Notes: generated by a model not told the origin, from the letters alone. A stretch of DNA of 64,000 nucleotides from Candidatus Woesebacteria bacterium RBG_16_42_24 (GCA_001792115.1 MGFX01000001.1:240606-304605); one strand, 5' to 3'; counted from the first letter of the stretch, positions 45,078-47,004 are shown. A program made the numbers and translations.

Positions 45078-45106
45078 GACAAGCCTTTCTATCGGTGATA
45101 GATTGA
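45078..45106 (+). promoter_or_regulatory. Sigma70-type promoter (TTGACA-N17-TG-n-TAGATT) upstream of the retron locus
   Basis: -35 at 45078-45083. Extended -10 TGaTAGATT at 45098-45106. Confidence 0.45.
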
Positions 45107-45112
45107 AAAGTG

Positions 45113-45425
45113 GAGGATGTAATTCCTTTCCGCTCTTTTAAATCTCACCCAGCTATCAATTAACCCTATCGCTCTATAAATGAGCAAACCAGCTTGTCTG
45201 GTTACTTATGGTGTCTGGAAAGACACCGCAGAGGTTTCGACCTCTGCCTTTTCAGGGGCCAAATATGGCACTCTGGAGAAAGTTATCGTTGATATCCGTG
45301 TAACCTCCTAGAAGAGGCACGTATAGCGACTTGTGCAAAGAAGTTTAGGATTGATCCAGTTTTTTCCTGCAGAGGGCCAAATTGAGGCACATGGTATCTG
45401 CAATACGAAACCATGTTAGACCGAG
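45113..45425 (+). ncRNA. Structured leader / candidate retron non-coding RNA (msr-msd)
   Basis: About 310 nt, non-coding in all frames. Three consecutive perfect hairpins lie at 45187-45203 (aaccag/ctggtt), 45210-45227 (ggtgtc/gacacc) and 45228-45247 (gcagaggt-UUCG-acctctgc), plus further stems. It sits upstream of an Ec86-like RT in the usual ncRNA position. Confidence 0.3.
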
Positions 45426-45638
45426 GTGAGTATTATGAAAAGAGTAAAATTAGACACGATTGTCGAATTCTTCGACAGTCTAGTTTCGGAAGAAAGGCTG
45501 GATCTTGAAACTAGGGGCCAAATAGCGAAAGCTATTAAAGATCTTTCACACGGTTTAGCTATAAAAGACCTGAAACAGGTAAGCAAAGCTGTGGATAGAT
45601 TGTCAAAAAGCCTGCTCAATAATACGTTTCGATCCTAA
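45426..45638 (+). CDS. Small hypothetical protein (70 aa) between the structured leader and the HTH gene
   Basis: The ORF has the RBS gaggtgag 7 nt upstream. Composition is coding-like, but the region could instead be part of the ncRNA. Confidence 0.3.
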   Translation: MSIMKRVKLDTIVEFFDSLVSEERLDLETRGQIAKAIKDLSHGLAIKDLKQVSKAVDRLSKSLLNNTFRS

Positions 45639-45683
45639 GCTTTCTTATAAGGTTCCAAACTGGTGCTTTATAAGAGAGCTTAG
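45635..45683. repeat. Inverted repeat with 16-bp arms (ctaagctttcttataa / ttataagagagcttag, one mismatch) and a 17-nt loop
   Basis: Read directly; lies between the small ORF stop and the HTH gene start. Confidence 0.7.
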
Positions 45684-45686
45684 TTT

Positions 45687-45992
45687 TTGGCAATCATGAA
45701 TTACGGAAAAGCTATTAAAATATTGCGAAGCGCCAAGAATCTTGAACAACAAGAGCTTGCCAAGAAAATAGGCCTTGATTCTAGCTACATTTCTTTAATT
45801 GAAAATGGTAAAAGAAAACCAAGTCCAAAAACCATTGAAAAAATTTCAGAAAGCTTGTCTATTCCTAAACACCTGTTGCTACTTCTTGCTTCCGATGAAA
45901 AGGATTTGAAAAACGTTCCAAAAAACGAGTCCGCAACAATTGGAAAACAATTGTTAGAAATTCTTATTTCCTCCCAGAATGTCGGGGCATGA
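45687..45992 (+). CDS. XRE-family HTH protein overlapping the RT start by 14 nt (likely true start ATG 45696)
   Basis: HTH: LEQQELAKKIGLDSSYISLIENGKRKPS. Confidence 0.65.
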   Translation: MAIMNYGKAIKILRSAKNLEQQELAKKIGLDSSYISLIENGKRKPSPKTIEKISESLSIPKHLLLLLASDEKDLKNVPKNESATIGKQLLEILISSQNVGA

Positions 45993-47004
45993 ACACCAGC
46001 TAAATATCCCAAGTCCATTTCCAATTTTATCTGTCAATAAATTGGCGTTTATATTAAGAACAAAGCCAAATGAATTAAAGAAATTATCAGAAAACGCCGG
46101 AAACTACTATACCCCATTCGATAGGAAACAAATCAAAGATAACGGAAAGGTAAAGTGGCGGCATATAGATAATCCTGCACCTAAACTTAAGAAAATTCAG
46201 CAAAAAATTAATAGGGTACTTCTGAAGGCTAAGGTAGAGTCGTTGCCAACCGGTATGACTGGGGGTATTAAGGGTAGATCAATTTTTACGAATGCCGCCC
46301 AACATCTTAATCAAAAAGCTGTGGTGACCATTGATTTGAAGGACTGTTTTCCAAGAACCAGTAACAAGCGAATTTTTAGAGTCTGGAGAAACCATCTGGG
46401 TACCAGTGAATGTGTAGCAAATATACTGACAAAGTTAACTACATTTCAGAGAAGATTGCCTCAGGGTTCCCCCACAAGTTCCTCGTTGTGTAATCTAGCG
46501 CTCTTTCCTCTTTTCAAAAAGACAAAAAGGTATTGTCAAAAAGAAAAATTCAACCTAACGTTGTACGTAGACGATATCACTATATCTGGCCAAACTATTC
46601 CGATACGACTCGCGATTGGAAGAATTATAAATTTCATTCAAGAAGAGGGTTATGCTGTCAGAAGGAACAAGATAAAAATTATGACGGCAAGTGTTCAACA
46701 AAAAACGACCGGATTAATTGTCAATAAACAATTGTCAGTTTCTGCAAAAGCACGTGAGGAGATTCGAAAAGAAATATTTATTTTATCAAGACAAGAAATG
46801 TTTTCCTCTAAAAGAATGAGATCTCTTTGGGGTAAAATTAATTACATTAAGAAGGTTTCACCAAAACAGGGGGGGAAATTAGCCAGCTTAGCACACACTC
46901 TTTTGTTGGATACACTAGCGTCTCATAGTTATGAAAATGTGACTTCGGAGAAGGAAGTGACAAGAGAGTGTAAAAATACAAGAAGACATAAATATAGTCT
47001 ATAA
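45979..47004 (+). CDS. Retron-type reverse transcriptase
   Basis: RT motifs are IDLKDCFPRT, LPQGSPTSSSLCNL and YVDDITISG. The retron-specific NAxxH motif (TNAAQHL) and VTG motif (QQKTTGLIVNKQ) are present. The block AVRRNKIKIMTASVQQKTTGLIVNKQLSVSAKAREEIRKEI closely parallels Ec86 RT (VINSKKTCISGPRSQRKVTGLVISQEKVGIGREKYKEI). 341 aa. Confidence 0.85.
   Translation: MSGHEHQLNIPSPFPILSVNKLAFILRTKPNELKKLSENAGNYYTPFDRKQIKDNGKVKWRHIDNPAPKLKKIQQKINRVLLKAKVESLPTGMTGGIKGRSIFTNAAQHLNQKAVVTIDLKDCFPRTSNKRIFRVWRNHLGTSECVANILTKLTTFQRRLPQGSPTSSSLCNLALFPLFKKTKRYCQKEKFNLTLYVDDITISGQTIPIRLAIGRIINFIQEEGYAVRRNKIKIMTASVQQKTTGLIVNKQLSVSAKAREEIRKEIFILSRQEMFSSKRMRSLWGKINYIKKVSPKQGGKLASLAHTLLLDTLASHSYENVTSEKEVTRECKNTRRHKYSL

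Follow-up and report, generated by a model that had tools for sequence, protein, structure and literature searches.

A predicted Type VI retron with a conserved hybrid-RNA-like fold in a Candidatus Woesebacteria genome

Introduction

A reverse transcriptase (RT) gene with retron motifs, preceded by two small genes and a structured leader, lies on the + strand at about 45066-47004 of a 64-kb window from Candidatus Woesebacteria bacterium RBG_16_42_24, the window being the whole stretch of DNA that was analysed. Which kind of retron is this, what is its RNA, and which of its genes would act as the effector? A first-pass annotation had proposed an Ec86-like, helix-turn-helix (HTH)-associated retron, had called the presence of two open reading frames (ORFs) between RNA and RT atypical, had left the effector open and had considered retrons barely documented in the candidate phyla radiation (CPR). 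Here we describe a locus that, judged from its sequence, is almost certainly a complete Type VI retron, a class that we take to be an anti-phage system in which a structured RNA and a small toxin gene are combined with an HTH regulator and an RT. The gene order on the + strand is promoter, structured leader, 67-amino-acid ORF, hairpin with a run of U residues, HTH gene and RT gene. An order of small protein (SP), HTH and RT genes downstream of the RNA is the canonical Type VI layout (10.1101/2025.10.22.683967; 10.64898/2026.04.27.721009), and the two ORFs are thus the norm and not an anomaly. Nor are retrons in CPR without precedent, as the Levybacteria Type VI retron Mestre-729 was part of a 2020 dataset and was assayed in a 2025 census.

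Type VI was described by Mestre et al. 2020 (NAR, PMC7736814) as a clade-3 RT accompanied by an HTH protein of the Cro/C1 type that has 91-110 amino acids (cluster 2_1) and is encoded upstream of or overlapping the RT gene; a subset carries a small helical protein, and no non-coding RNA was found for the type. For Retron-Vpa2 of Vibrio parahaemolyticus (Zhang et al., 10.1101/2025.10.22.683967), the report describes a toxic SP whose ribosome-binding site (RBS) and AUG lie in stem-loops, an HTH protein that represses reverse transcription, and multicopy single-stranded DNA (msDNA) that is undetectable before phage recombination proteins appear and is required for SP translation once the system is triggered. 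Its authors propose that a conserved 7-nt direct repeat, present in msd and in a 'riboregulator', mediates SP translation. For Retron-Sen3 (Garcia-Rodriguez et al., 10.64898/2026.04.27.721009), the report gives the same layout with a conserved 5' stem-loop, an RBS in the basal stem and inverted repeats (IR1 and IR2) that flank the SP gene. Single-stranded DNA (ssDNA) and SP are constitutive, the HTH protein is a protein antitoxin to the SP toxin, and the system surveys RecBCD.

Results

Reverse transcriptase and helix-turn-helix protein

Both proteins encoded at the 3' end of the locus carry Type VI signatures. The RT matches the PADLOC profile RT_VI best (258.7 bits, E=1.4e-77, profile positions 5-276 of 279), with RT_III-A next at 192 bits, and the best 25 of its 44 PADLOC matches are all retron RT models. 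In Pfam it matches RVT_1 (1.5e-21), and a homology search returned 371 homologues at E<=1e-10. The 341-amino-acid protein with retron motifs that the first-pass annotation had placed at 45979-47004 is present as described: the NAxxH motif is NAAQH at amino acids 105-109 (TNAAQH, 104-109), YxDD is YVDD at 196-199 (nt 46564-46575), and the 'VTG' motif reads TTG, with V replaced by T, within QKTTGLIVNK at 241-250 (TTGLIVN, 243-249). Across the aligned relatives H109, T244 and G245 are invariant, and N105 and A106 are nearly so. Among solved structures the best match is the Ec86 RT (E=1e-24, amino acids 57-297 on Ec86 amino acids 59-295), followed by Kva2, Ec67 and Ec83, and strong matches are to retron RTs only. 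The earlier label 'Ec86-like' is apt only for the RT fold; the system type is VI and not that of Ec86.

An RT of a non-retron class, whether from a group II intron, a diversity-generating retroelement (DGR), an abortive infection (Abi) system or a defence-associated RT (DRT) system, is so improbable that we set it aside. What could suggest one is a pair of weak NCBIfam matches far below their thresholds, to the group II RT/maturase model TIGR04416 (34 bits, cut-off 300) and to Drt2 (21 bits, cut-off 390); the retron models of NCBIfam are likewise sub-threshold. Opposed to this are the leading PADLOC matches and the strong solved-structure matches, all to retron RTs, with a group II maturase reaching only 1.6e-4 over 78 amino acids. 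In addition, the Rfam search placed no group II intron or other RNA family at the locus, neither a maturase nor an endonuclease domain is present in the RT, and no template/variable repeat pair of the DGR kind occurs at the locus. The group II RT/maturase identity was rejected on the TIGR04416 score, the lack of an Rfam intron RNA and the short maturase match; profile scores likewise led us to reject the DGR, Abi and DRT readings. By profile and solved-structure scores alike, the RT falls with retron RTs rather than with those of group II introns, DGRs or Abi systems.

Past the end of the RT_VI match at about amino acid 298, the RT has a C-terminal tail (..TRECKNTRRHKYSL, amino acids 329-341, nt 46963-47001). 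C331 is invariant in 36 of 36 aligned relatives, down to 37% identity, R329 is likewise invariant in the 14 closest, and the basic surroundings are conserved. This tail may be a clade-specific nucleic-acid- or partner-binding element.

The HTH gene overlaps the RT gene by 14 nt (HTH stop 45992, RT start 45979), as had been annotated. Its product matches PADLOC HTH_VI at 7.4e-24 and 81.8 bits, the next best profile scoring 47 bits, and Pfam HTH_3 (4.4e-14) together with HTH_19; with RT_VI and HTH_VI both matched, the description as an HTH-associated retron is supported. The HTH gene and the small ORF of the first-pass annotation both exist, and we correct their starts to ATG 45696 and ATG 45435. 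For the HTH gene, ATG 45696 (98 amino acids), on which gene callers and NCBI agree, is the likely start, not TTG 45687; at 98-101 amino acids depending on the start, the protein lies inside the 91-110 range of Type VI cluster 2_1. It also resembles antitoxin-type HTH proteins (HipB, Y4mF family) at sub-threshold scores, and we predict that it acts as a repressor of reverse transcription, as an antitoxin to the SP, or as both. In the closest non-identical relative (L075, 3001-4308; 73% RT identity), HTH and RT are called as one 435-amino-acid ORF, which may reflect a true fusion of HTH and RT or else a frameshift or an error of assembly.

The RT, HTH and SP, together with the restriction-modification proteins and a helicase encoded in the window, each have identical counterparts at NCBI in Candidatus Woesebacteria RBG_16_42_24 and RBG_19FT_COMBO_42_9. 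The entries for the RT (OGM15919.1 / OGM66530.1), HTH protein (OGM15918.1) and SP (OGM15917.1) are all deposited as 'hypothetical protein', so that the proteins of the locus were public beforehand, though unannotated.

A conserved fold upstream of the HTH gene

The segment at about 45110-45690 carries a conserved, covariation-supported fold, the elements of which are listed in Table 1. We infer that it is one transcript, with ends near 45110 and 45690 because of the positions of the promoter and the U-run. The folding energy of 45105-45700 in the window is -202 kcal/mol, with z=-7.6 relative to dinucleotide shuffles, and 0 of 100 shuffles is as stable. The comparative analysis used an alignment of nine sequences, the window and eight relatives, that spans the sequence between the putative transcription start and the start codon of HTH, on which RNAalifold predicts 97 pairs, 46 of them with compensatory changes. 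The structure that was counted consists of this fold plus, as a pseudoknot, the helix between the 5' arm and the Shine-Dalgarno (SD) sequence of the SP gene (the anti-SD helix); controls were 3' partners slid by 1-3 columns and 500 shuffles. The resulting consensus has 106 pairs in 16 helices. Its cells are paired in 94.6% of cases versus 39-49% after sliding, and 48 pairs are changed on both sides versus 6-15 after sliding and 20.8 in shuffles, with 0 of 500 shuffles reaching the observed values. The promoter-driven leader with hairpins of the first-pass annotation is thus present, conserved and covarying, at a length of about 325 nt instead of 310.

The 5' part of the RNA can be followed furthest. 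An alignment of 23 sequences for the 5' domain, other CPR phyla among them, contains many compensatory changes in stem-loop H1 and in the hairpins labelled C and D, so that H1 covaries in both alignments. Within the four-hairpin msr-like domain there are compensatory changes in every hairpin, and the single-stranded ACTTATGG is invariant. A covariance model (R1) built on hairpins C and D has a single match in the 64-kb window, at 45195-45259 with 63.8 bits. In loci on which it was not trained, R1 matches on the RT strand, and wherever the RT could be positioned the match lies some 750-1000 nt upstream of it; the model scores 37 bits in a Gammaproteobacteria metagenome-assembled genome (MAG; locus L101) and is weaker in MAGs of Planctomycetia, Thermoanaerobaculia and Acidobacteriota. 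Rfam finds nothing in the leader, either at E<=1 over 40-50 kb or at gathering thresholds over the whole window.

The segment that follows the four hairpins is unalignable between relatives, yet it folds into hairpins in every one of them. By analogy with the variable stem-loop of Vpa2 and Sen3, to which their msDNA has been mapped, we read it as the predicted reverse-transcription template, equivalent to msd. Further downstream, long-range pairings tie the leader to the SP gene. All six IR1-IR2 pairs, which bracket the SP coding sequence, have compensatory changes, with 96% of cells paired, and the helix between 45353-45367 and 45488-45504 comprises 15 pairs (97% paired, 6 compensatory). IR1-IR2 agrees with the pair of this name in Sen3 and with the a1/a2-like repeats of Vpa2, and an inverted-repeat search returned it as well.

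The terminator-like hairpin, which the inverted-repeat search also returned, comprises 19 pairs (97% paired, 9 compensatory) and, with its U-run, is a putative terminator or attenuator placed before the HTH and RT genes. The base of this hairpin (CTAAG at 45635-45639 with CTTAG at 45679-45683) shares nucleotides with IR2 at 45633-45638, and therefore IR1-IR2 pairing and the full-length hairpin compete. This competition could constitute a switch between the hybrid-RNA fold on the one hand and termination or read-through into HTH-RT on the other.

The small protein and its ribosome-binding site

The substitution pattern of the 67-amino-acid ORF indicates that SP is a real gene under purifying selection, with pairwise ratios of nonsynonymous to synonymous rates (dN/dS) of 0.11-0.45 and 770/556/1115 differences at the three codon positions. 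A 60-75-amino-acid ORF occupies the equivalent position in most loci inspected, that of the Gammaproteobacteria MAG included; none was found in relative L004. The consensus of the close clade is ..IVEFFD.L..EERLDPETRGQIAKAIKDLSHGLAIKDLKKV.KAVD.LSK.LL. No Pfam, PADLOC or NCBIfam family matched the SP, and its own family is small: a word-index search gave 4 homologues, and an exhaustive profile search of 1.8 billion representatives gave 15 clusters at E<=1e-3. Neither search gave any protein from the named SP clusters of Type VI. The AlphaFold2 model has three helices (4-17, 24-40 and 43-65) at a mean pLDDT (predicted local distance difference test) score of 64; this prediction fits the helical SPs of Type VI and is too weak to say more. 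We propose that SP is the toxic effector, because the SPs of Vpa2 and Sen3 are toxic. The effector, which had been left open, would then be a small protein with its coding sequence inside the structured RNA, as in the two Type VI retrons studied.

The start of the SP gene is predicted to be sequestered by the 5' arm of the RNA. This pairing with the SP SD and AUG is present in the minimum free energy fold of the window, and the corresponding duplex reaches -16 to -22 kcal/mol in all nine sequences. In the alignment, the fixed-column count covers nine pairs (columns 36-44 with 391-400), which comprise the SD hexamer and three adjacent pairs; the remainder was assessed by duplex folding of each sequence, and the lower half of the helix between arm and AUG changes register among relatives. 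Relative L003 has changes on both sides, its SD being GGAGGA instead of GGTGAG, with an arm that matches (UUUCCUCC:GGAGGAA). These observations suggest that the 5' arm both forms a basal stem resembling a1/a2 and blocks the translation of SP. The anti-SD pairing, IR1-IR2 and the 15-bp helix cannot all form in one nested fold and must be mutually exclusive or pseudoknotted; a two-conformation picture is likewise described for Sen3 (10.64898/2026.04.27.721009).

Two direct repeats that change together

The heptamer GAGGCAC occurs twice in the RNA, on the 3' side of the msd-like segment and just upstream of the SP RBS (Table 1). Relatives have a repeat at the equivalent two positions, and its sequence is specific to each lineage while both copies remain alike: TGAGGCACG in L077 and L078, TTGTGGCAC (GTGGCAC) in L080, GGGGCAC in L081, GCGACACA in L007, ACGACACAT in L058, AACGACA in L020 and GACAGCA in L101. 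We compared narrow, position-anchored windows from one representative per lineage with permuted pairings. The summed length of words shared within loci is 89 against 72.7 +/- 4.2 when permuted (p=0.0002). A direct-repeat test with wide windows was discarded, as chance 5-7-mers dominate it. Such concerted change is what the Vpa2 model would predict if an RT copy of repeat 1 anneals to repeat 2, and it lends indirect support to the variable segment as the template. Copy 2 is predicted to be a docking site for msDNA, at a position that corresponds to the 'riboregulator' repeat proposed for Vpa2.

A second repeat, GGGCCAAAT, is present in three copies in the hybrid RNA, at 45256-45264 (start of the msd-like segment), 45374-45382 (directly 5' of the second GAGGCAC) and 45515-45523 (inside the SP coding sequence, codons T-R-G-Q-I). 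A 12-nt sequence, AGGGGCCAAATA, is identical at 45254 and 45513, and 'CAGGGGCC' and 'CAGARGGCY' are partly conserved in relatives at the first two GGGCCAAAT positions. The GGGCCAAAT repeat may be a second msDNA docking element or may be structural, and both it and the terminator-like hairpin may be lineage-specific refinements.

Promoter and candidate operator

A promoter scan alone is not above chance at this locus (8 sites versus 7.7 expected). The arrangement of a TTGACA -35 box, an exact 17-nt spacer and a TAnnnT -10 box recurs in all related loci inspected; the putative transcription start lies at about 45110. The -35 box is at the same time the right half of a TGTCA-N6-TGACA palindrome, an arrangement kept in most related loci inspected; the left arm is variant in some of them, for example GACAA or GTACA. 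The palindrome over the -35 box is likely to be an operator for the HTH protein.

Relatives and genomic neighbourhood

The combination of SP, HTH and RT genes with the upstream RNA is conserved in relatives at 73-34% RT identity and in several phyla. Closer RT relatives (73-57% identity) come from metagenomes. In species-representative genomes, relatives at 34-43% identity are found in Woesebacteria, Levybacteria, Saccharibacteria, Paceibacterota and Nanosyncoccus, and further ones in Nitrospirota, Acidobacteriota, Planctomycetota, Polyangia, Omnitrophota, Fibrobacterota and a Gammaproteobacteria MAG. The locus of this last MAG has the full layout of palindromic promoter, 5' hairpin, anti-SD arm, GACAGCA pair, SP, HTH and RT. 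In two relatives at 63% RT identity (L077, 755-2651; L078, 806-2640), the cassette lies directly beside recA-recX, in L078 also near ribosomal protein genes, and elsewhere it adjoins NYN/Lon or NucS genes. The cassette has evidently moved between chromosomal contexts, as is typical of mobile defence modules.

The defence-island setting proposed for the locus agrees with the surrounding gene content, as Pfam and PADLOC matches reveal a neighbourhood rich in defence and toxin-antitoxin genes (Table 1), and the region behaves as a defence/toxin-antitoxin island. Directly upstream of the retron, 42929-44958 (+) is occupied by a type II restriction-modification pair. The window also contains the Rfam DUF3800-IX RNA motif at 40447-40515 (-), with 50.3 bits against a gathering score of 36.8. 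A DUF3800 gene (39789-40415, +) precedes the spacer that holds this motif, an unannotated ORF of 271 amino acids (40659-41474, +) comes after it, and a second DUF3800 gene follows at 41581-42216; the motif is on the strand opposite to these genes.

Table 1. Coordinates of the predicted retron elements and of neighbouring genes in the 64-kb window
Feature	Position	Strand	Details
Candidate HTH operator palindrome (A/T)GTCA-N6-TGACA	45066-45081	+	AGTCATACCAGTTGACA; overlaps -35 box
Sigma-70-type promoter TTGACA-17 nt-TAGATT	45076-45104	+	scan score 10/12 with TG extension
Hybrid RNA (hyRNA)-like transcript, predicted	45110-45690	+	msr-msd-like part, SP coding sequence and 3' hairpin; fold and covariation
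Non-coding leader	~45110-45434	+	about 325 nt, without conserved ORF
Stem-loop H1	45112-45129	+	directly upstream of 5' arm; 7 pairs, 4 compensatory
5' arm (anti-SD)	45131-45149	+	GCTCTTTTAAATCTCACC; pairs with SP SD, AUG and first codons, 45425-45445
Four-hairpin msr-like domain	45163-45259	+	hairpins 45171-45185, 45187-45203, 45210-45227, 45228-45247
Variable msd-like segment	45249-45343	+	one or two hairpins per relative; carries repeat copy 1
Direct repeat copy 1	45314-45320	+	GAGGCAC; 3' side of msd-like segment
IR1	45345-45350	+	TTAGGA; pairs with IR2 TCCTAA, 45633-45638, over SP stop codon
Long-range helix arm	45353-45367	+	GATCCAGTTTTTTCC; pairs with SP codons E-E-R-L-D (GGAAGAAAGGCTGGATC, 45488-45504)
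Two hairpins	45376-45416	+	upstream of SP SD
Direct repeat copy 2	45384-45390	+	GAGGCAC; hairpin region just upstream of SP RBS; predicted msDNA docking site
SP gene	45435-45638	+	67 amino acids, OGM15917.1; SD GAGGTGA 45423-45429; predicted toxic effector
Three small hairpins	inside SP coding sequence	+	consensus fold
Terminator-like hairpin and U-run	45639-45690	+	stem 45639-45679, extendable to 45635-45683; U-run ends about 10 nt before HTH start
Cro/C1-type HTH gene	45696-45992	+	98 amino acids; PADLOC HTH_VI; Pfam HTH_3, HTH_19
Type VI retron RT gene	45979-47004	+	341 amino acids; PADLOC RT_VI 1.4e-77; YVDD intact
Gp49 (HigB-like) toxin and HTH antitoxin pair	39126-39422, 39419-39730		
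MazG-like pyrophosphohydrolase	42411-42779		
N4/N6 methyltransferase	42929-44125	+	PADLOC MTase_II 1.5e-92
TdeIII-family endonuclease	44122-44958	+	Pfam RE_TdeIII 6e-72; 4-nt overlap with methyltransferase
HicB/HicA	47280-47591, 47584-47805		

Discussion

The architecture of the Woesebacteria locus agrees feature by feature with that of published Type VI retrons, and CPR Type VI retrons are already in published datasets. Both PADLOC profiles of the type match it strongly, and it corresponds to the description of a Type VI hybrid RNA in having an msr-msd-like region joined to an SP coding sequence, an RBS and AUG in helices, flanking inverted repeats and a pair of repeats of about 7 nt. It differs from the type as defined by Mestre in the length of the SP, which is 67 amino acids here and 75-79 in the named clusters (cl2075, cl2760, cl3272, cl3897). 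The Ec86/Eco1 retron (Type II-A) has an RT that is colinear in fold and motifs over about 240 amino acids (E=1e-24) and a structured RNA upstream in the same operon. However, its msr-msd abuts the RT gene, whereas two genes intervene here, and its effector is nucleoside deoxyribosyltransferase-like, in contrast to the predicted one here, a small protein encoded within the RNA. Finally, the abundant msDNA of Ec86 is an antitoxin, whereas msDNA of the present locus would be expected to activate a toxin.

Retron-Vpa2 is among the closest known systems. The two share the order of non-coding RNA, SP, HTH and RT, an SP coding sequence embedded in a structured hybrid RNA, an SP RBS and AUG in helices, inverted repeats that connect the 3' end with the non-coding part, a direct repeat of 7 nt found both in the msd region and beside the RBS, and a small helical SP without a known domain. 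They differ in host, which is a CPR bacterium here, in the length of the RNA (an inferred ~580 nt versus ~470 nt in Vpa2) and in that of the SP (67 versus 55 amino acids, compared by description and not by sequence). Moreover, the repeat of the present locus lies partly in a stem and not in a loop, and the triggers of Vpa2 are lambda Beta and Exo, with a role for RecBCD. Taken together, a Type VI retron that works in the manner of Vpa2 is probably the best explanation of the locus.

By analogy with Retron-Vpa2, the RT, HTH protein and hybrid RNA would form a complex in which the HTH protein keeps reverse transcription low and the SP is translationally silent. Upon phage infection, msDNA made from the variable segment (~45250-45340) would accumulate, and the complement of the repeat within this msDNA would anneal to copy 2 (45384-45390) and thereby open the RBS. 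SP would then be made and the infected cell arrested, so that the locus is predicted to protect against phage by abortive infection or growth arrest. In addition, the HTH protein is probably a direct antagonist of SP, like its counterpart in Retron-Sen3, and by way of the palindrome at the -35 box it may repress the promoter.

Whether SP is held in check mainly at translation is the point at which Vpa2 and Sen3 part. The locus may instead be a Type VI retron of the Sen3 kind, in which msDNA and SP are constitutive, the HTH protein is a protein antitoxin and infection is sensed through a lost host DNA-repair activity. In Sen3, too, IR1 and IR2 enclose the SP gene, IR2 falling on the stop codon or directly behind it, a 5' stem-loop is present and the RBS is sequestered, and yet the system works post-translationally. 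Further shared features are a long internal stem-loop whose centre is not conserved, pairs that covary within the SP coding sequence and an HTH gene that overlaps the RT gene. The similarity of the HTH protein to HipB and Y4mF-family antitoxins, at its sub-threshold scores, would suit such a role. However, the concerted evolution of the repeats and the conserved SD/AUG pairing are predictions of the msDNA-riboregulator model, and in place of constitutive ssDNA and SP under post-translational control the co-evolving repeats point rather towards control that depends on msDNA. The Sen3 SP, at 79 amino acids with an N-terminal extension, belongs to cluster cl2075 of a Beta-/Gammaproteobacteria lineage, whereas the SP studied here has 67 amino acids and neither sequence search connected it to a named cluster. 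In addition, the broad host range of the RT relatives fits the heterogeneous 'Large' lineage of Vpa2, where we would tentatively place the locus, and not the proteobacterial cl2075 lineage of Sen3. A purely Sen3-like mode thus seems rather unlikely, although it is compatible with the Vpa2-like explanation and both can coexist. For the control of SP itself we lean, with little more than even confidence, towards a mainly translational, msDNA-dependent mode as in Vpa2 over a purely post-translational one.

Several points weigh against the interpretation as a Type VI retron with Vpa2-like working. The locus is known here from sequence alone, and its likeness to the RNAs, SPs and repeat of Vpa2 and Sen3 rests on described architecture and is hence indirect. 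A branching guanosine and the canonical a1/a2 priming geometry were looked for at the locus and could not be assigned. The duplex between 5' arm and SP start has modest z-scores (-1.2 to -4.0), and with the alignment register fixed, no more than 85% of the anti-SD helix is paired. Word-index and exhaustive profile searches detected no similarity of SP beyond its own small family, and little confidence attaches to the model of its structure (pLDDT 64). A Woesebacteria host may lack any counterpart of the triggers known so far, lambda Red and RecBCD inhibition. Lastly, the Sen3 report states that six of six Type VI retrons of the 2025 census, Levybacteria Mestre-729 included, gave no detectable ssDNA in E. 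coli (10.64898/2026.04.27.721009). Retrons of this type can be silent in the resting state.

Alternatively, the leader could be no more than a cis-regulatory 5' untranslated region, a translational or transcriptional attenuator of an SP-HTH toxin-antitoxin operon, with an RT that uses another template or none, so that this RNA would yield no msDNA. The lack of ssDNA from the six census retrons under standard conditions and the unassigned branching guanosine and a1/a2 geometry agree with this, and an SD-sequestering arm and a terminator-like hairpin are ordinary regulatory devices. Yet in every phylum this RNA is invariably found with the RT gene, conservation of the msr-like hairpins goes far beyond the needs of an attenuator, and the co-evolution of the repeat copies is hard to explain unless a complementary copy is made. 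In Vpa2 and Sen3, moreover, RT-dependent ssDNA maps to the equivalent stem-loop. We therefore regard an attenuator of this kind as improbable and retain the reading as a Type VI retron.

Within that reading, a distinct mechanistic variant of Type VI can be envisaged, which would combine an msDNA clamped at both ends, a separate hairpin control and possibly a different signal. The predicted template (~45250-45335) starts with CAGGGGCCAAAT..GGCAC and ends with GAGGCAC, and the site beside the SP RBS carries both elements side by side (CAGAGGGCCAAAT-TGA-GGCAC, 45370-45390). In such a variant, the 5' and 3' ends of the msDNA would anneal adjacently to form a DNA:RNA hybrid of about 20 bp that unlocks SP translation, while the balance between hybrid RNA and HTH-RT would be set separately, by the terminator-like hairpin. 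Should the proteobacterial trigger factors be missing from the host, the system may sense another signal. We consider this variant doubtful as a description of the locus.

The analysis of the Woesebacteria locus points to the small ORF as the predicted effector and recognises the gene layout as canonical for Type VI. Work on the hybrid-RNA architecture had until now dealt with Vibrio and Salmonella systems; the analysis carries it into an ultra-small CPR bacterium and into relatives from several other phyla. It also lends independent comparative support to two published ideas that are still hypotheses, namely that the SP RBS is sequestered by a conserved 5' arm and that two short direct repeats, which co-evolve, are functionally coupled. 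Not a new kind of system, the predicted retron offers retron engineering and CPR biology a natural variant that is compact and well delimited.

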